Assembly (NCBI GenBank): GCA_027081015.1
Contig: JALWMA010000147.1
Coordinates: 8,000-71,999, forward strand
Length of the DNA stretch: 64,000 bases
Origin: Campylobacterales bacterium
Lineage (GTDB): Bacteria > Campylobacterota > Campylobacteria > Campylobacterales > Hydrogenimonadaceae
Reading direction: 5' to 3'
In this document: one piece after another, positions 49,009 to 58,507 of the stretch
Position numbering within the stretch: position 1 is the first letter of the stretch
Layout: each line of letters starts with the position of its first letter
Translations under genes and position numbers: made by a program
Notes under the pieces: model-generated
What the model was told of the DNA's origin: nothing
Seen by the model: only the letters and a program-made list of their open reading frames with translations
Databases searched by the model: none

Positions 49009-50027
49009 TATTCGTAGATGCATGTTTTAACAGACCGACCCCCTATACACCCGTTTGGATGATGCGCCAGGCAGGAAGATACCTTCCCGAATATATGGCG
49101 GTACGCGAAGAGGCCGGAGACTTCCTGAATCTCTGTAAAGACCCCGAAAAAGCTGCGGAGGTGACACTCCAGCCTGTAGACATCATAGGTGTGGATGCGG
49201 CGATACTCTTTAGCGACATTCTCGTAGTACCTCTCGAGATGGGGATGGATCTGAAGTTCGAAAAGGGTGAAGGGCCGGTATTTTCAGACCCCATACGAAC
49301 CAAAGATGACCTAAAGCGCCTCCGGCCGAACGCGCACGAGAGGCTCACATACGTCTACGACGCCATCAAGATCATACGCGAGCGGCTCGCCGACGACAAA
49401 GCGCTCATAGGCTTCACGGGCGCACCCTGGACACTCATAACATACATGATCGAAGGGCGCGGCACCAAGACCTACAACATAGTCAAAAAGCTCATCTACA
49501 CGGAGCCCGAACTCGTACACGCACTCCTTCGTGAAGTTACCGAGGTCGTCAAACTATACCTCGAAAAGCAGATAGAAGCCGGAGTCGACGTCGTACAGAT
49601 TTTCGACAGCTGGGCGGCGGCGCTCGAAAAGAGCAAATACTTCGAATTCAGCTGGAACTACATGAAAGAGGTGGCAAGCTACATCAAGGGCAAATACCCC
49701 AACATCCCGATCATCATGTTCCCCAAAGGGATAGGCGCCTACCTCGACGATATAGACGGAGAGTTCGACGTCTTCGGCGTAGACTGGGGCACGCCGATGG
49801 CGCTTGCAAAAGAGAAACTGGGAGACAGGTACGTCCTGCAGGGCAACATGGAGCCGTGCCGCCTCTACTCCAAAGAGGCGACCAGAGAGTGCGTGGAGTC
49901 TATCTACAATACCATGCAAAACAGGGGCCACATCTTCAACCTCGGCCACGGAATCCTCCCCGACGTTCCGGTGGAGAACGCCAAATACTTCGTAGACCTC
50001 GTACACGAGATAACGAAAGAGAAGTGA
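49005..50027 (+). CDS. hemE: Uroporphyrinogen decarboxylase
   Basis: [31 protein letters not shown] and [10 protein letters not shown] motifs. Confidence 0.98.
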
Positions 50028-50977
50028 CACCCTCCAAATATAGGACCATCTTCGGTCCTATCCCCTCCAGACGGTTCGGCATCTCGCTGGGAATTGACCT
50101 GAGCCCCGGTACGAAACAGTGCAACTACGACTGCCTATACTGCGAACTGGCCGCCGCGAAACCGGTGGAAGCCATTCAGAACCCGCCGAGTGTAGAGCTT
50201 GTCGTAGATGAGCTCAAAAGTGCCCTCAAAGAGCACCCCGACATCGAAGTCATAACGATCACCGCAAACGGCGAACCGACCCTATACCCGTTTTTGGACG
50301 AGCTCATAGATCGCATAAACCAGATCAAAAACGGCTACAAAACCCTGATACTCACAAACGCCTCGACAATATGGCTGCCGCAGATCCAAAACTCCCTCGC
50401 CAAACTCGACATCGTAAAACTCTCGCTCGACTGCGCCACGAAAGAGTGCTTCAAAAAACTGGACAGACCGCTGGAAGGGACGGAGCTCGAAAATATTATA
50501 GAGGGCATAAAGAGCTTCAGAAAAAGATTCAAAGGCTCCATGATAATAGAGATTCTGATGGTCCCCTCTATCAACACCTCAAAAAGAGAGATAGAGGCGC
50601 TAAACAGAACGCTTCTCGATCTTGGGGCAGACCGCATAGACATAGGCACAGTAGACAGACCGCCCGCATACCCCATAGAGCCTCTGAGCTTCAAAGAGCT
50701 CTACGAAATCGCAAAAGAGTTCGACCCCTCCCTTCCCATCCACATAACGGGCCGCCACAGGGCCAAAGAGGCCAAAAGCTCCTTCAGCGACGAAGAGATA
50801 CTCTCGACCCTGCTCAAACGCCCCCTGACGCAAGCGGACATTGAGGCCCTCTTCGACGAAGAGAGCCGAAAGCGCTTCGAAGCGCTGCTGCAAAAAGGGA
50901 AGATAGAGACAAAAAAGCTCGGCGGCCTGCTCTTTTACGGCACCGGCTTTTCGAAACAGAAGCGAAAATCCTCTTGA
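50024..50977 (+). CDS. Radical SAM protein (TYW1-like bacterial family, function unknown)
   Basis: GTG at 50024 overlaps the hemE stop; [25 protein letters not shown] and ANGEPTLY motifs. Confidence 0.88.
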
Positions 50978-51039: not shown

Positions 51040-51114
51040 TCCGGATTAGCTCAGCGGTAGAGTAGGTGGCTGTTAACCACTTGGTCGCTGGTTCGAATCC
51101 AGCATCCGGAGCCA
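51040..51114 (+). tRNA. tRNA-Asn (GTT)
   Basis: Acceptor TCCGGAT/ATCCGGA, anticodon arm GTGG-CTGTTAA-CCAC, T arm GCTGG-TTCGAAT-CCAGC, G73, CCA. Confidence 0.97.
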
Positions 51115-51288: not shown

Positions 51289-53775
51289 TCATAGGTTACC
51301 TTCATACTCTTTAGAACCAATTACCGTATCGTAAAGCCCAACCTCTTCACCCTCATGCTTGTTAATACCGACATATTCGAGGCTTGCATCCTCATACCGT
51401 TTAAATTTATACACTGCGTCATTCATTAGCGCACTATTGAACAGATCGAGACTGACCAGCAACTCAAAATCTTCAACCGTCAAGCCAGTTACCTTTTTGA
51501 AAAGACCTGGTTCAAGTTGTGTAATGACATCTTTCAAACTTTTCTCACGGTAATCTGTCAAATACATAAACACCGGGATACGTGTTGCAAATTTGATGAG
51601 TTTTTCCTGTATCTTCTTACGTAGGCTTTTGTACTCTTTCTCCTCTTTGCTGAGTTCTTTTTTCTCCTCTTTTGTCAGCTCTCTGTCATTGGCCTCTTTT
51701 TTCGCTTTTTTAACTGCCTCGGATTTGTTGATTATGGTTTCTATGTCTTGATTGAGCGAACGGAAACCCTCGATGCTCATCAGTGCACTCATCGCTTTTT
51801 CATTATCCATAAGCCGCTTCAGGGTGGCATTGTCGACATTGACGAGCAGTGCACTTTCCCAGCGTCTGGCAAGAAGGGTCGCCGTCGTTCCGCTCAGTGC
51901 CATTTCCAGAACCCCGGCGGCATCGATGGGCTCCATGGAGCTTCCGTCGTAAGCGAGTATAGGAAGGAAGTGAATAAACTCGGCTACCTTCTTCTCGGGA
52001 TCAGGCTCATCGACATTCAGACGCGAACTGTACTCCGCAATCTGGCTCAAAGCCCTGTTGGGAGCGAAGTCAAAAACGTAGCACTCTTTTTTGATGATCT
52101 CTTCTTTGTTGGGAGATTTGCCGTCGGGATTTTTCACTGTCCACGGGGTCTGTACCCTGAATGCCGCCTGAAAATAGGTTTCCGGACTGCTAAGGTTGCG
52201 CAGCATGAAAATCCCCGACCACGGCTTTACCGAAACACCTGTGGTCAGCTTACCGCATGAGAGGGTAATTGTTTTACTCTTTAGCGGATCGTCCATCGCT
52301 TTTAGTACCGGCTCCAGAGCTTTGGCGCCTATCCCGGCTTTTGGACCGGCGGCTACTATAATCTTGTAATCGTGATAAAACCTGTTTTGCCGCTGCATCA
52401 TCAGGTTTTTCATCGCATAGGCAGAAGCTACGGATGGAAGGAACCAGAAGGTGTGGGTCAGAATTTGAAGCAGCCTTACATCCGAAAAAGGAAGCGCCGG
52501 TTTATTGGATCCAAGTTTGAGGTTGTCTGTGCTTGTAGGCAGGTAAGCACCTCGAATCAGATCGAGCCATTTTTGGACATACTCTTCATATTTGAACTTC
52601 GCATTATCTTCATCCCCCTCGGCTTTGAAAAACTCATTGAGATCGAATTCGTTAAACTCTCCTCCCATAGCGATAGAACGGATCGACTCCGGCATCTGAT
52701 AGGTCAGCATCACCATACGGGGCAAAGATGCGTATGGGTTGTTCTCTCCTTTCCACTCCTCTTTTGCCCTCTGTTCATCCGAATATGTCCAGTTGAATAT
52801 CTGCTCTTCGATGAACTCCCCCGTGCTAATGGCACGGAAAGGAGTGCCGGAGAGATAAAGGTAGTGATTTGTCGTAATGGGCATTATCTCTTCGTCAAAA
52901 TAGTCGATTCCCTCACCCTCCGCATAGGCTATCTCTTTTTTACCCTCAGCTTCAAAAAGCTCTTTGGCGCTCTCTCTCCATGCACCATAATGGTACTCGT
53001 CAAATACGACACAATCCCAGTTTGTCGCGTGAACCCATTCGTTTTTGGCTTTGATACCTCCGGCAGAGTTTTTGCCCAGATAGTCCTGAAACGAACCGAA
53101 GCAGACAAAAGGCTTGCTCTCATCGACACTCTCTTCATCCAAACGCTCACGAGAGTAGAACTCCCACCCCTCGAAATCGACATGTGTCTCCAGATCTTCT
53201 TTCCAAGCGCTCTCTACCGCGGGTTTGAATGTTAGAACAAGTATCTTCTTCCAGCCCATCTTTTTTGCGAGCTGATATGTAGCGAACGTTTTGCCGAAGC
53301 GCATTTTGGCATTCCAGAGAAAGTGCGGGTTTTTGTCCGGATTTTCTTTTTTGTAGCTCTCGAAGTATTGCATCGTCTTCTCGACAGCCTCAGCCTGTTC
53401 GGGACGCATTTTGAATGTCAAAGTCCGACTCCGGGCACTCTTTTTACCGCTTTTAACGGCGTGTATGGCCGCCATAACTTCCCGCTTTCCGCACCTGAAC
53501 CACTCTCCGTCAGGATTGGGGATGCCCTGGGCACGAAGATAGCGATGAACATCATGATCGCTAAAGGAGCTACCGTCATTTCTCATTGCGGACTCTTCGA
53601 GAAGAATCTCGTAGCGAAGTCCCGATGTCCCGAGCTGCTCCCTGACACGCTCTCTCACATCTCTTGTCGTAAAACCCACCTTGATAAGCCCCTCTCTATC
53701 GGGGGCATTGAGAATTTTGTAGGCATAAATTTGAGGGTGCAGTTTGGGACGCTGCGGGAAAAAGTCGTTACTCAT
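51289..53775 (-). CDS. GIY-YIG (T5orf172/MUG113-like) nuclease fused to an SF2 (Res-type) helicase
   Basis: IYAY...IKVGFT.R...GEWF nuclease; variant Walker A NAKMRFGKT, FDEYH, LSGTP; start MSNDFF at 53775 overlaps the upstream stop. Confidence 0.85.
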   Translation of the reverse strand: MSNDFFPQRPKLHPQIYAYKILNAPDREGLIKVGFTTRDVRERVREQLGTSGLRYEILLEESAMRNDGSSFSDHDVHRYLRAQGIPNPDGEWFRCGKREVMAAIHAVKSGKKSARSRTLTFKMRPEQAEAVEKTMQYFESYKKENPDKNPHFLWNAKMRFGKTFATYQLAKKMGWKKILVLTFKPAVESAWKEDLETHVDFEGWEFYSRERLDEESVDESKPFVCFGSFQDYLGKNSAGGIKAKNEWVHATNWDCVVFDEYHYGAWRESAKELFEAEGKKEIAYAEGEGIDYFDEEIMPITTNHYLYLSGTPFRAISTGEFIEEQIFNWTYSDEQRAKEEWKGENNPYASLPRMVMLTYQMPESIRSIAMGGEFNEFDLNEFFKAEGDEDNAKFKYEEYVQKWLDLIRGAYLPTSTDNLKLGSNKPALPFSDVRLLQILTHTFWFLPSVASAYAMKNLMMQRQNRFYHDYKIIVAAGPKAGIGAKALEPVLKAMDDPLKSKTITLSCGKLTTGVSVKPWSGIFMLRNLSSPETYFQAAFRVQTPWTVKNPDGKSPNKEEIIKKECYVFDFAPNRALSQIAEYSSRLNVDEPDPEKKVAEFIHFLPILAYDGSSMEPIDAAGVLEMALSGTTATLLARRWESALLVNVDNATLKRLMDNEKAMSALMSIEGFRSLNQDIETIINKSEAVKKAKKEANDRELTKEEKKELSKEEKEYKSLRKKIQEKLIKFATRIPVFMYLTDYREKSLKDVITQLEPGLFKKVTGLTVEDFELLVSLDLFNSALMNDAVYKFKRYEDASLEYVGINKHEGEEVGLYDTVIGSKEYEGNL

Positions 53776-55276
53776 ACGTTGGCTCCATAGGCCGAATAGA
53801 AGACTCAATAAAGTTAATTTCGTTTTTTGTCAAATTATATCTTTCATACAATTTGTCATCAGTCCATTTCTTTGTCATATCAAGTACCGGTACAAACTGA
53901 AACTTATCTTTTGTGACATGTTGAGTATAAGATAATTGGGATATTAAAAAACGTACAAATTTACTACAAAGGTAAAGCGCTAAATTTTTTGCTTCCTCAG
54001 GATTATCATAACTGCCAAGTACAAGATAAGATTCAGTACATATTGTTTCAGGTGGTAAAATTTCTACTTTTGAGAAAAGTTTTCGCTTCCCATCTTTATC
54101 AGGCTGACCAGCATGATCATATGACACATACGAACTAATCACTTTCCATTTATCAATCAACTCAGTTCCAACTGTTATTTTTTCCCGTTCATATAAACCA
54201 GTACCTTTATTCCAGCGCAATTTTATATTTCCATTATTTGTAGGCCTGACAGTTGTTGGCAGTCCAAAAGGCTTTCTGCTTGAAACCTGTTCACTCATTT
54301 TCGGCTCGTTCTTAGATTGAACCTTTTTAATTATTGATATTGCCTGACTAAATCTTATAAATGTATCGAATTGATTTAATGGTCGAATTGATTTTTGCTC
54401 TTCACCTTTAAAAATATTTGTAACTTCACATGGGCCAGAATAATCCCTGTCCCATAAAAAATAACACACACCTCCAGCAATATCAACACCGGGAAAACAC
54501 TCGGAGGCATCAGGAAAATCAATTAGTTTTTTAATACGTTCATCATTCAACATCTCATCTCTAAAGTCATTAAGTCCTTTTCCTCCAGCATACCAGCGAG
54601 CAGGAATAATCATGGTTAGATACCTCGGTTTCATCTTTTTTGCCTGCTGTACGAACTTATGGTAGATGGGTTTGGCACTTTTTCCAAAACCGCCATCACT
54701 GAGCTGATAAGGTGGATTTCCTACAATTACGTCGAACTTCATATTAAAAATCTCCTCCGGATTATCTGTATGTATAAATTGATATGCGTGAGTTTCGAGT
54801 ATATCTTCTCGTTCGTATACTTCCTTGCTCGCGCCGCAATATCTACATCTTCCATTCTCCCATGTGTGCTCTATGCGCTCAAAGATAATATTGCCCTGCT
54901 CAGTAGTAAATGTTTCACAAAAAGAGTATTTACCGTCGGCTTTTTTCGAGCCGTATACGCTCCGACGTGACAACAGCCCAGTCAGTTCCGTAATGGCTAT
55001 GCCGTAAAGCTGTTTTTCAAAAATATGGTTTAATCTCTCTTGTCTATCCGGTATAACGCTTTCAAGTCCTCTATTGAGCCGCTTCGCAATCTCTCTCAGA
55101 AATACTCCCGACTTACTAAACGGATCGAGAAAGGTAACCTTCGGATCACTCCACAACTCTTCCGGCAGCAGATCGAGCATCTCGTTGGCAAGCTCCGGCG
55201 GCGTAAAGACTTCGTCACTGCTCAAGTTTGCCAGCATATTCAGCACATCCGGGTTATAGTTCACCTTATCGTTCAT
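53768..55276 (-). CDS. Eco57I-like N6-adenine DNA methyltransferase with C-terminal target-recognition domain
   Basis: EVFTPP, FLDPFSKSGVFL (motif I variant), FDVIVGNPPY (motif IV), IIPARW and GGVCYFLW motifs. Confidence 0.88.
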   Translation of the reverse strand: MNDKVNYNPDVLNMLANLSSDEVFTPPELANEMLDLLPEELWSDPKVTFLDPFSKSGVFLREIAKRLNRGLESVIPDRQERLNHIFEKQLYGIAITELTGLLSRRSVYGSKKADGKYSFCETFTTEQGNIIFERIEHTWENGRCRYCGASKEVYEREDILETHAYQFIHTDNPEEIFNMKFDVIVGNPPYQLSDGGFGKSAKPIYHKFVQQAKKMKPRYLTMIIPARWYAGGKGLNDFRDEMLNDERIKKLIDFPDASECFPGVDIAGGVCYFLWDRDYSGPCEVTNIFKGEEQKSIRPLNQFDTFIRFSQAISIIKKVQSKNEPKMSEQVSSRKPFGLPTTVRPTNNGNIKLRWNKGTGLYEREKITVGTELIDKWKVISSYVSYDHAGQPDKDGKRKLFSKVEILPPETICTESYLVLGSYDNPEEAKNLALYLCSKFVRFLISQLSYTQHVTKDKFQFVPVLDMTKKWTDDKLYERYNLTKNEINFIESSIRPMEPTYE

Positions 55277-55922
55277 GTTCCGCCAACCTTAAAAAGTGGG
55301 TTACCGGATACTCTTTCACCGGATCAGGAATAAACACCTCTTCCCCCAAATCCGAAAAAAGCCCCGCGTCACTGCCGAACTGCGTATTGTGCAGTATCTC
55401 GAAGCTGTAATCTCTTCGCTTGATCATCACACTGTTTACGGGAGACCACTCCGAGAAGATGATAGGCTCATTCTTTTTGTCCACACGCTTGAAGGTAAGC
55501 GCATCACCTTGTATTATGTTATGGTCCAAAATATATAGAACGCTTTGACGGCACGCCTCACGGCAACGCTCTTTAAAGAGTTTGCTGTACTGTTCGTCAA
55601 ACACCTCATAAAGCCTACTGCGGCACTCTCTTACATTGTCTTCCAGCAGATCGATACCGTATATGCTGGAAACCGCTATAACCGCATTACGTTCATAATC
55701 CATCTGACTCTTTTTGTAGCGCTTTTTGACTACTTCAAGTTTTCTACGCAGTATCTCGACCAAGAAGTTTCCGGAACCGCAGGCAGGCTCTAAAAAACGG
55801 GACTCGATCCGCTCTGTTTCATGCTTGACCAGATCGAGCATGGCATTGACTTCCCTTTCATGAGTAAAGACTTCGCCATGTTTGGCGACACGCGTCTTGC
55901 ACTTCACCTGATTATTACTCAT
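55266..55922 (-). CDS. Short SAM-binding methyltransferase-like protein lacking the NPPY catalytic motif
   Basis: GEVFT, FLEPACGSGNFL, IYGIDL and NIIQGDAL, then no motif IV; ATG 55922 preferred (ORF track uses TTG 55937). Confidence 0.8.
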   Translation of the reverse strand: MSNNQVKCKTRVAKHGEVFTHEREVNAMLDLVKHETERIESRFLEPACGSGNFLVEILRRKLEVVKKRYKKSQMDYERNAVIAVSSIYGIDLLEDNVRECRSRLYEVFDEQYSKLFKERCREACRQSVLYILDHNIIQGDALTFKRVDKKNEPIIFSEWSPVNSVMIKRRDYSFEILHNTQFGSDAGLFSDLGEEVFIPDPVKEYPVTHFLRLAEHER

Positions 55923-56070
55923 TCCTTTCCTTTGCAACCTTCCTACCGCATCTACAGACCTGTATCAAGTTAAAATACACGATACCGTCCTCTTTTTAAT
56001 AAGTCTAATTCTTGAATATACTTTCATTAAGATTGCATCATCTTCCAAAAATGTGCTTATGAGTCGAGTA

Positions 56071-56154
56071 TCAATAGGTCTCACCATTTCGGCACTCAAG
56101 GAGTGAAAGATAGTATCTAATCCGCTTGATCTTCGCTTCTATCTTATGCCGCAT
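56071..56154 (-). pseudogene. Truncated HEPN/DUF86 (HepT-like) toxin remnant, 27 codons
   Basis: ATG overlaps the MNT end and reads MRHKIEAKIKRIRYYLSLLECRNGETY*, resembling DUF86 N-termini; no RxxxxH motif in any downstream frame. Confidence 0.6.
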
Positions 56155-56500
56155 CGATGATCTGCCTGAAGACCTTGAAGTCTATGATTTTATGTTGTGT
56201 TTCTACTTCATATTCGGTTCGTATCTCATGGTCTTTGAGCAGGACACCGTGGTAGATGACCGACTCCAGTAGATAGATATTGCGCGTGGTATTGAGAACA
56301 ACCAGATCCACCTCTTTTTTTAGAGCTTTTTGTAGAGTATGGTGGAGTGAGAGCCTGGCATCGAGTGAGGTATTGTCGAGATAAACGGCTATATCCACAT
56401 CGCTTCGAGGTGTCGCCTCCCCTTTGGCATAGCTGCCGAAGAGGTAACCGAAAAGCACACTGTTATCGGCCTCGAGGATACGCTTGATAATCTCTTTCAT
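56144..56500 (-). CDS. Minimal nucleotidyltransferase (MNT/MntA) antitoxin
   Basis: YLFGSYAKG...SDVDIAV...VDLVVLN; ATG 56500 lies 6 nt after an extended -10 (TGTTATAAT), so the mRNA is probably leaderless. Confidence 0.9.
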   Translation of the reverse strand: MKEIIKRILEADNSVLFGYLFGSYAKGEATPRSDVDIAVYLDNTSLDARLSLHHTLQKALKKEVDLVVLNTTRNIYLLESVIYHGVLLKDHEIRTEYEVETQHKIIDFKVFRQIIDAA

Positions 56501-56624
56501 GAATTGATTATAACATAAGCTGGTTCGTCGCACCGGTAAGCGGCCGAAGATAGACGTCGTTCATTGTACCCGGAGGAATAAGAAGCCCTCGAGTTTTTTG
56601 GTTAGGCTAAATAGATTACCGTCT

Positions 56625-57611
56625 TTAAAACACGCCTTCCGTTTTTGGCACTATAACATTTTCATAGACCATATAGCCGTTCATTTCTATGCGAATGTAA
56701 AAACCTTCCCGGCCTATGGGCTCCTGAAGTTCAAAGCTAACGGCAGGAGGGACTCTCCATAGTTTAGACTTATCATATTTCCTGCCTGTTCGTCTATCTT
56801 CACCGATAACTCTCATATCGAACTCGAAACGCTCTGCATTGGAAAATCTCATAATGACTTCATTGGCATTTTCACCAATGGTTACGCTATTTACCAGAAG
56901 CCTGTTGTTATAAAATATACCGTCTTTTGTAAAGACTTTAATGATCTTTGAGATTCTGCTTTTTATGTTTGGCTCGAGTCTATAGAGCAGCGTCTCTCTT
57001 TCCGCTTCGGAACGGACGCATATATATCTTAAATAGTCATATACATCCAGTTCATCCGGTATTAAAACTTCTGCATGGCGACAATAGAGAATATGCCTGC
57101 TATAAGAATCATTCGGCAAAGCGCCGCGATCGTATATATAATCGAACTCCAACTCTTTGAGATCTTCAACCGATTCATATATCTTCGCATTGCTTGCGGC
57201 TATATTCCCGCTGCTGAACCTCACCCCCTCTACGGCCAGGAGTTTTACAAAATCGAAGAGCAGAAATACCGGTACAGGACAGTGAGCGCCGTTTTTGACC
57301 TCATGCTTCGGCAAGATGCCCTCGTTTCTATATTGCGTAGGAGTTTTCGCACCGAAATAACACCTGACAAAACTCAGATATTCATTCTGCGTCTTGTCGA
57401 TTACCTCACTGTCCGCATTGTCATTTGCCATCAAACCGAGCTCACACGCTTTTTCCCTGCTGTAAAGCTTGCCGGAGTTCAATATGGAGGCAATATTCTG
57501 TACATCACTGTAGTGAAAAATAAAATTCGGCCACCAGCTTTGATAACCGTTTTTGAATCTTTCGAAGAGGCTCTTTTGAAATGACTCGACAAACTTGTAC
57601 CTTTCACTCAT
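56625..57611 (-). CDS. darT: DarT-like (DUF4433) DNA ADP-ribosyltransferase toxin with C-terminal extension
   Basis: FHYSDVQNIASILNSG, VRCYFGAKTPTQY, FSSGNIA and RHAEVLIP (catalytic Glu) motifs. Confidence 0.85.
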   Translation of the reverse strand: MSERYKFVESFQKSLFERFKNGYQSWWPNFIFHYSDVQNIASILNSGKLYSREKACELGLMANDNADSEVIDKTQNEYLSFVRCYFGAKTPTQYRNEGILPKHEVKNGAHCPVPVFLLFDFVKLLAVEGVRFSSGNIAASNAKIYESVEDLKELEFDYIYDRGALPNDSYSRHILYCRHAEVLIPDELDVYDYLRYICVRSEAERETLLYRLEPNIKSRISKIIKVFTKDGIFYNNRLLVNSVTIGENANEVIMRFSNAERFEFDMRVIGEDRRTGRKYDKSKLWRVPPAVSFELQEPIGREGFYIRIEMNGYMVYENVIVPKTEGVF

Positions 57612-58507
57612 GCCACAAACTTGTCGGGCTCGCCATCTTTTGAAACCGGTTGTTTGTAGGCCAGGAGCCTAACGGCGCTCTCATCCTCCTCTTCTCCGAC
57701 CTGTGTCAACGCTATGTAGTCCAGTTCCGATAAAAAAGCCATAACCATATCGGCATGTTCCGCCAATTCGGAAGAGAGCATCTCTTTTCGCAAAAAGCCG
57801 CCGTTTCTGAGCAGATGCCAAATAGCCGCAAGAGTCGATCGTGTCAGGTAGATCTGTGTTTTACCCTTTTTTAGGCAGAAGCTCTCTTCGTCATCGATCT
57901 TTTCTACCGTCACATCTATCGTCATACCGAGCTTGTGTACGCTGTTTATAAGCCCGCTGAACCTCTGATTCAGATGTGATATAAATTCTATACTCGAAAG
58001 ATATTGAGGCTCGCTTTTCAGCCACACTTCGATCTCTTTTTGGTTTTTATGCTCCGGTGCCAAGCCGTCTTTTTTGGAGATGTGGACGTAGACATCGATC
58101 GGCAGGTTTTTCAGGTATCTCTCCATCAGGGGTTTGACTTCCTGCCAATCCAACCCTCCGTTCCCGCACCCAAGCATAGGAAACGAGATAGACTGGATGC
58201 CCAGCTTTTCATAGTTTCCTACGAATTTTTTTAGTCCGGCCTCTATATACTCGATTTTCGAAGGGTAACGCCAGCTCTTTTTGGTCGGAAAGTTCAAAAT
58301 CCACTTGTTGGGCGTTCTGTAAATTTGGAGTTTTCCGATCGTCAGCTGGCCCTTTTCGCAATAGTGCTGATAGGCTTCGAACATCTCAGGATACAGGCGT
58401 TTAAACTCTTTGGCCAAACCTTTGCCCATTACGCCTACCGTGTTGACCGTATTGACCAAAACCTGAGCATTTGATTCGAAAATGTCTGTACGAACGTAGG
58501 TAATCAC
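57608..58507 (-). CDS. darG: DarG-like macrodomain antitoxin with atypical C-terminal domain
   Basis: VNTVNTVGVMGKGLA.EFK..YP, NFPTK and FPMLGCGNGGLDW motifs; stop overlaps the darT start. Confidence 0.88.
   Translation of the reverse strand: MITYVRTDIFESNAQVLVNTVNTVGVMGKGLAKEFKRLYPEMFEAYQHYCEKGQLTIGKLQIYRTPNKWILNFPTKKSWRYPSKIEYIEAGLKKFVGNYEKLGIQSISFPMLGCGNGGLDWQEVKPLMERYLKNLPIDVYVHISKKDGLAPEHKNQKEIEVWLKSEPQYLSSIEFISHLNQRFSGLINSVHKLGMTIDVTVEKIDDEESFCLKKGKTQIYLTRSTLAAIWHLLRNGGFLRKEMLSSELAEHADMVMAFLSELDYIALTQVGEEEDESAVRLLAYKQPVSKDGEPDKFVA

Follow-up and report, generated by a model that had tools for sequence, protein, structure and literature searches.

Why should a restriction-modification (RM) system keep its DNA methylase in two parts, and what is the role of the smaller part? 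This question is raised by three genes, here called g1, g2, and g3, on the reverse strand of a 64,000-nt stretch of a Campylobacterales genome (contig JALWMA010000147.1, positions 8,000 to 71,999; hereafter the window, to which coordinates refer). We propose, with a probability of about 80%, that the three genes form an intact, ATP-dependent RM operon of the DrdVI family, Type IIG-like/Type ISP-like in nature, which is carried on a horizontally acquired island and works by the mechanism outlined below. Judged by homology, the trio is an intact copy of a widespread family already in REBASE and is not new, and for the window itself the result is ordinary annotation. The lead that we add concerns the division of the methylase: g1 corresponds to the front half of related single-chain orphan methylases, and the front half of g2 has lost cofactor-contact residues.

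The window contains all the genes that define the DrdVI family, namely an M1 protein, an M2 protein, and a fused GIY-YIG nuclease-translocase, in the order M1-M2-R within one operon (Table 1). Three neighbouring genes on plasmid pDrdVI (NZ_CP031164.1), from Deinococcus wulumuqiensis NEB 479, encode proteins of 212, 539, and 851 aa. Over 214 aa, g1 shares 47% identity with M1.DrdVI (E=8e-60), g2 is 49% identical to M2.DrdVI (E=2e-175), and g3 is 57.4% identical to the pDrdVI nuclease-translocase over residues 20-831. Cloned M1-2.DrdVI, listed as Type IIG, gives N6-methyladenine (m6A) at GCAGCC in E. coli (PMC6430315), and cloned M1-M2.MaeIV from Methanococcus aeolicus gives m6A at GCACY in the same host (PMC6430315, PMC10113651). 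The New England Biolabs (NEB)/REBASE authors use the term ‘split methylase/RM genes’ for DrdVI and MaeIV and regard M1 and M2 as the parts of a single enzyme (PMC10113651); DrdVI itself is described as ‘a fused translocase and REase’ (restriction endonuclease) with a GIY-YIG domain (PMC4996451). The literature searched holds methylome-level data only, for these two members, and no paper on how DrdVI-type enzymes cleave DNA was found in it.

The starts chosen are internal ATG codons, where the homologues begin; the longest open reading frames (ORFs) start at TTG codons. With the ATG starts, g1 and g2 overlap by 11 bp and g2 and g3 by 8 bp, and a Shine-Dalgarno-like AGGA or GGAG precedes the start of each gene. 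Promoter and terminator scans of the region gave scores no better than those of shuffled sequence. All motifs quoted for the three genes were read back from the window DNA.

The predicted restriction subunit, g3, matches two Pfam families, T5orf172 (residues 33-116) and ResIII (residues 132-287). Its family alignment contains an invariant Walker A motif, FLWNAKMRFGKTF, together with invariant DEYH, SGTP, and QAAFRVQ (QAAFRVQT in the window); helicase motifs I, II, III, and VI are all invariant, and so are the catalytic residues of the GIY-YIG domain. g3 is without a model in NCBIfam, and none of the Type III REase models of PADLOC matches it; a sequence search against PDB chains returned no match for g3 or g2.

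g2 is the catalytic subunit by motif content. It matches Pfam Eco57I (E=4e-38), and among 63 aligned sequences DPxxKSG and NPPYQ are invariant, GIAIT replaces GID at motif II, and motif III lacks its acidic residue (Asp). Residues 281-440, the target-recognition domain (TRD), show a mean pairwise identity of 34%, as against 68-70% in the N-terminal half and the catalytic core, and fall into 7 clusters; by this pairwise comparison the TRD is mosaic. The AlphaFold 2 (AF2) model of g2 (predicted local distance difference test score, pLDDT, 79) matches CamA, BrxX/PglX, M.TaqI, and BpuSI across both the methylase and the TRD. A Cys/His cluster between motifs II and III is probably a zinc ribbon, and the ligand candidates C120, H137, C144, and C147 are present in the window copy.

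g1 presents the opposite half of a methylase. Pfam recognizes it as MmeI_Mtase over the N-terminal half of the profile only (positions 18-120 of 259), and it keeps motifs X, I, II, and III, with catalytic motif IV absent. An alignment of 58 sequences has 40 invariant columns and defines the family motifs HGEVFT (X), RFLEPACGxGNFL (I), YGIDxLxDN (II; YGIDLLED in the window), and GDAL (III), after which FSEWS and KRRD occupy the site of motif IV. The AF2 model (pLDDT 86) is half a Rossmann fold, composed of parallel strands 1-3, one further strand, and a hairpin. Foldseek returned weak partial matches of this model (template-modelling score about 0.35) to the gamma-class adenine methylases CamA, MmeI, LlaGI, and BrxX, a result that confirms the predicted half-fold and says nothing on function; the best sequence matches of g1 to PDB chains have E of about 0.05-0.1. 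In NCBIfam, g1 and g2 both match below threshold.

The shortness of g1 (218 aa) and its match to methylase profiles in the N-terminal half only are what a truncated pseudogene fragment of an unrelated methylase would also display. Conservation refutes this explanation, to which we give no weight. The 57 homologues of g1, drawn from across phyla, are full length and 54-65% identical, with the invariant columns noted above, and g1 always lies directly upstream of g2. A search of 1.8 billion representative proteins with the g1 profile found 940 clusters at E<1e-30, nearly all of them free-standing proteins of 210-240 aa and a few of 480-580 aa. We also rejected the idea that g1 methylates the second strand: the published DrdVI and MaeIV motifs, GCAGCC and GCACY, have an adenine on one strand and none on the complementary strand, methylation is therefore one-stranded, and g1 is no second-strand methylase.

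An earlier note on this DNA, made from the letters alone, had anticipated much of this gene-level picture. It reported overlaps of 11 and 8 bp, which hold with the ATG starts that match the homologues; a g1 with the motif I FLEPACGSGNF and no NPPY, in whose place we find FSEWS; and a g3 that couples a T5orf172-type GIY-YIG nuclease to a helicase, as Pfam bears out. It was also correct that g2 has NPPY and a target-recognition domain. Its description of g2 motif I as degenerate needs qualification, as the motif is indeed altered, but K55 is invariant in 63 sequences, which marks it as a conserved variant and not a product of random decay. The Walker A motif of g3, called odd in the note, fits [AG]xxxxGK[ST] (as AxxxxGKT) and is invariant in the family.

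The three genes travel together. At least 8000 close homologues of g3, with 70-99% identity, are found among the matches listed; between phyla, identity to g3 is 70-76%. When one genome per species was scanned, 80 g3 loci (70-77% identity) were kept from nearly every bacterial phylum and two archaeal lineages, in which homologues of g1 and g2 lie directly upstream of the g3 homologue in the same order. A full-length g2 is present at 63 of these loci, 58 of which have more than 700 nt of upstream DNA, and a full-length g1 is found in all 58. Because order and full length are kept in 58/58 loci, the association of the trio is far beyond chance. g1 and g2 overlap in 50 of the 58 loci, and g2 and g3 are adjacent in 38 of the 63; the gaps between g2 and g3 hold DUF1016/YhcG-like, RhuM-like, Bro-N/ORF6N-like, GxxExxY, Fic, or PIN-toxin genes, named from their N-terminal sequences. 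The same kinds of passenger genes have been listed inside Type I operons (PMC9881135). The distribution is patchy: among 21 other genomes from the genus, a single one has g3. A megablast search of the module against complete E. coli genomes gave no match; the module is also found on plasmids of Sphingopyxis, Deinococcus, and others. The family is among the most widely spread restriction systems.

Individual loci depart from this plan. In a Polaribacter locus (L018:2986-6032), M1 and the nuclease gene flank a tandem pair of M2 genes whose recognition regions differ, and the second of the pair lacks the Cys-cluster insert. At two loci (L027:2500-6100 and L029:1500-6100) an intact g3 homologue is preceded only by a C-terminal M2 fragment, with no M1; these are possibly decayed or rearranged systems. 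On a Sphingopyxis plasmid (L084:138-2778) a DUF262 (GmrSD-like) gene and a HigBA-type toxin-antitoxin pair precede the module, and an AAA ATPase and S8 peptidase pair follows it.

In a profile-profile comparison, g1 residues 16-118 align with g2 residues 6-106 (96% probability, E=1.3e-9), and the two front halves are therefore paralogous; paralogy of the 5' regions is visible even at the DNA level, where it emerged from a direct-repeat search. In the same alignment, the motif I Gly of g1 faces Lys in g2, and the motif II Asp of g1 faces Ala.

Natural fusions join the two proteins in two ways. A published Bibersteinia ORF has an M1-like N-terminus and an M2-like C-terminus (PMC4996451). A second search with the g1 profile, aimed at longer proteins and followed by dissection with BLAST, yielded P0335 (743 aa), which comprises a complete g1 and a complete g2 and is directly followed by a gene for a 1004-aa T5orf172-ResIII protein; a look-up of another fusion, P0353 of Niastella, found no record. 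The same search revealed about fifteen clusters of single-chain methylases of 474-594 aa, in which a g1-type front half is joined straight to a g2-type half with NPPY and TRD. Their front half is 50-65% identical to g1 and has the canonical LEPACGxG, and the DPxxKSG half is absent. The three with readable context are orphans lacking g3, one of them in phage-like surroundings and two solitary. This architecture makes g1, by sequence comparison, the likely canonical cofactor-binding half of this methylase lineage, and the fusions argue that g1 and g2 may well work as one unit. One single-chain methylase of 516 aa, with a g1-type front and a g2-type catalytic half (L090:6001-7551 and L091), sits among small genes in a phage-like context; a dUTPase and a DNMK-like kinase are among its neighbours, and none of the genes nearby is for a nuclease.

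A second kind of fusion joins g2 to g3. In PADLOC, the fused, ISP-like model PDLC03626 (1359 aa, labelled Type IIG) aligns in turn with residues 127-765 of g3 and residues 13-497 of g2. A genome of the same order encodes a 1356-aa protein of this type, and close upstream of its gene lies an ORF that resembles g1 (27% identity, E=3e-7). Enterococcus pAT02-a and Lactococcus pCV56A encode GIY-YIG-helicase-Eco57I proteins of 1445-1452 aa, and on both plasmids the preceding gene is for an ‘N-6 DNA methylase’ of 230-248 aa with 37% identity to g1. Split and fused forms alike are therefore constantly accompanied by the small protein.

We propose the following mechanism. The variable recognition domain of g2 would read a short asymmetric site, and its NPPY site would methylate one adenine to m6A. 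g1, a detached cofactor-binding front half, most likely binds S-adenosylmethionine (SAM) and acts in complex with g2, because the front half of g2 has lost three of the usual cofactor-contact residues; we infer this role from the motif pattern and the fusions. g3 would load at unmethylated sites via the methylase complex, translocate with ATP, and cut by its N-terminal GIY-YIG domain, probably after two enzymes collide or cooperate, as those of Type ISP and Type III do. In those systems, two-site cooperation makes methylation of one strand enough for host protection. Cleavage would thus be coupled to translocation, and the window copy would defend its host against phages.

Several observations weigh against this proposal. 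The predicted fold of g2 holds a front half of its own, with strands 1 and 2 at a pLDDT of about 90, and if that half is folded there, it is unclear from the models where the g1 cofactor site would lie relative to NPPY. M.TaqI also lacks the Gly in place of which g2 has Lys, so that g2 might bind SAM by itself. The fusions do not prove otherwise, nor do they explain how g1 would gain access to the NPPY pocket with the front half of g2 still folded there. No published test of M2 without M1 was found in the literature searched. Two further points concern the activity of the operon as a whole. Residue 109 of g2 (54950-54952) is Gly in the window, at a near-invariant position that is Cys in at least 90% of homologues, and the analogous DnmA-YeeB-YeeC system of B. 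subtilis gave no protection against three phages (PMC9973331).

In a rival reading, g2 is a self-sufficient methyltransferase and g1 an accessory with no catalytic part and no share in the active site; it might, for instance, sense SAM, or act as an adaptor by coupling the methylase to g3 or licensing the cut. The model of g2 is indeed a complete methylase core of the seven-strand type with a TRD, matching the monomeric CamA and M.TaqI over its full length; its front half is strongly conserved (68% mean identity) and hence under selection; and the fused single-chain ISP-like relatives keep a separate g1-like gene upstream. Against this, g2 has lost Gly from motif I and Asp from both motif II and motif III, and g1 retains all three; the orphan single-chain methylases are built with the g1-type half and do without the g2-type one; and the REBASE authors treat M1-M2 as one enzyme. 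We consider an accessory g1 unlikely. An elaboration of the split methylase is also improbable: g1 would supply SAM as a split Rossmann half, the front half of g2 would be a pseudo-site with a zinc ribbon, and g1, through its exchange or its occupancy, would switch the system between methylation and cutting by g3 according to the SAM level, for example in response to phage enzymes that degrade SAM.

The Gly at residue 109 and the B. subtilis result, together with the adjoining MntA gene, which has lost its HepT partner and thereby indicates some decay in the island, would agree with a relic operon, one that may still methylate but no longer restricts or defends, the state proposed for dnmA-yeeB-yeeC of B. 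subtilis. Yet the window has three full-length ORFs with intact catalytic motifs and coupled starts, and two other copies of g3, a metagenomic one at 99% identity and one from the same genus at 90%, are free of stops. An intact nuclease-motor gene deprived of protective methylation would, moreover, be expected to harm its host. We regard the relic as very improbable and retain the working DrdVI-type operon.

The operon lies in a low-GC island (GC content 0.38-0.48 inside and 0.52-0.60 outside) that starts at a tRNA-Asn gene and also carries an MntA-like nucleotidyltransferase, DarT, and DarG; a direct-repeat search for att-like island ends found none. The DarG-like gene comes first and overlaps the DarT-like gene, whose product has a C-terminal stretch of about 110 aa without a match. 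No intact HepT toxin gene accompanies the MntA-type antitoxin. The 221 bp between MntA and g1 (55923-56143) contain stop-interrupted frames only, one of which, judged by eye, could be an N-terminal remnant of HepT. Just outside the island, adjoining the tRNA gene, lies a radical-SAM gene with sub-threshold similarity to prokaryotic viperins.

Table 1. Features of the operon and its surroundings in the window.
Feature	Position	Strand	Remarks
g1 (M1.DrdVI homologue)	55922-55266	-	218 aa from ATG, 223 aa from upstream TTG
g1 motif I FLEPACGSGNF (canonical SAM-binding loop)	55764..55796	-	R47-L59 almost wholly invariant, 58 homologues
g1 FSEWS, in place of (N/D)PP(Y/F)	55443..55457	-	W164 invariant; F161, S162, E163, S165 kept in at least 90% of sequences
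g2 (M2.DrdVI homologue)	55276-53768	-	502 aa; Eco57I-family gamma-class N6-adenine methyltransferase with its own TRD
g2 variant motif I DPFSKSG	55106..55126	-	Lys replaces first Gly of the loop; K55 invariant, 63 sequences
g2 Cys/His cluster, between motifs II and III	54836..54952	-	Family C109, C120, H137, C144, C147; AF2 confidence low
g2 catalytic motif IV NPPY	54707..54718	-	Invariant in family
g2 variable target-recognition region (residues 281-440)	53957..54436	-	Pairwise identity comparison
g3 (DrdVI nuclease-translocase homologue)	53775-51289	-	828 aa from ATG; N-terminal T5orf172/GIY-YIG, superfamily 2 (SF2; ResIII-type) motor, conserved C-terminal region
g3 GIY-YIG/T5orf172 domain	53461..53733	-	Y28, G45, T47, R54, E102 invariant
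g3 Walker A AKMRFGKT	53287..53310	-	Invariant in family
g3 DEYH box	52990-53001	-	Motif read from DNA
tRNA-Asn, edge of low-GC island carrying the operon	51040..51114	+	GC 0.38-0.48 inside island, 0.52-0.60 outside
DarG-like macrodomain gene	57608-58507	-	PADLOC DarG, E=1e-63
DarT-like gene	56625-57611	-	Pfam DarT, E=3e-23
MntA-type nucleotidyltransferase antitoxin	56144-56533	-	NCBIfam MntA, E=1e-23
Radical-SAM protein	49856-50977	+	Viperin-like, NCBIfam E=1.6e-13, below cut-off

Annotation tools see little of this operon. PADLOC 2.0 recognizes only g2, as a Type II methylase, and NCBIfam is without a g3 model; censuses of defence systems may therefore miss or mislabel the family.

The earlier note had stated that the layout fits no textbook Type I, Type III, or single-chain ISP system, and comparison with each of these supports it. 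Type I was rejected as there is no HsdS-like ORF and the TRD lies within g2. Type III systems such as EcoP15I share with the operon a Mod plus an ATP-dependent Res, asymmetric sites, one-strand methylation, and the ResIII Pfam match, but have a beta-class Mod (PF01555) and a Res with a C-terminal PD-(D/E)xK nuclease, neither of which was found here. Type III was rejected on the gamma-class Eco57I assignment of g2, the N-terminal GIY-YIG domain of g3, and the lack of a PADLOC Type III REase match. The Type ISP enzymes LlaGI and LlaBIII resemble the trio in their single TRD, gamma-class Eco57I-like adenine methylase, SF2 motor, and nuclease N-terminal to the motor. Each of these enzymes, however, is one polypeptide, has a nuclease of the Mrr/PD-(D/E)xK kind, and lacks an M1-like partner; with three separate ORFs and a T5orf172/GIY-YIG nuclease in place of an Mrr-type PD-(D/E)xK one, a true Type ISP system was rejected.

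OspHL35III and DnmA(YeeA)-YeeB-YeeC also combine a site-specific m6A methylase and its TRD with a helicase and a T5orf172/GIY-YIG nuclease. In these systems, which REBASE files as Type IIG-like, an MmeI-like single-chain methylase is accompanied by a separate helicase and a separate GIY-YIG protein (PMC4752239, PMC2731913). According to work on Vibrio crassostreae that PMC9973331 cites, deletion of the homologous genes in that species raised sensitivity to some phages. The YeeABC type was rejected since the helicase and GIY-YIG domains are fused here and the methylase is in two parts.

The layout is not, as the earlier note supposed, outside known classes: REBASE files the DrdVI family as Type IIG(-like). 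A match to a characterized RM subtype, which the note had said would refute its proposal, thus exists in part, in that methylation specificity is known for two members. Its central idea, a split methyltransferase with an ATP-driven GIY-YIG restriction subunit, agrees with the terms that NEB uses for DrdVI and MaeIV and with homology, and natural fusions suggest the heterodimer. DrdVI differs from the window system in its recognition domain, its host, and its location, on a plasmid as opposed to a chromosomal island at tRNA-Asn. In gene order, DrdVI and MaeIV are alike and match the window, with a small M1, an Eco57I-type M2 with TRD, and a GIY-YIG-translocase, the M1 and M2 genes overlapping or abutting.

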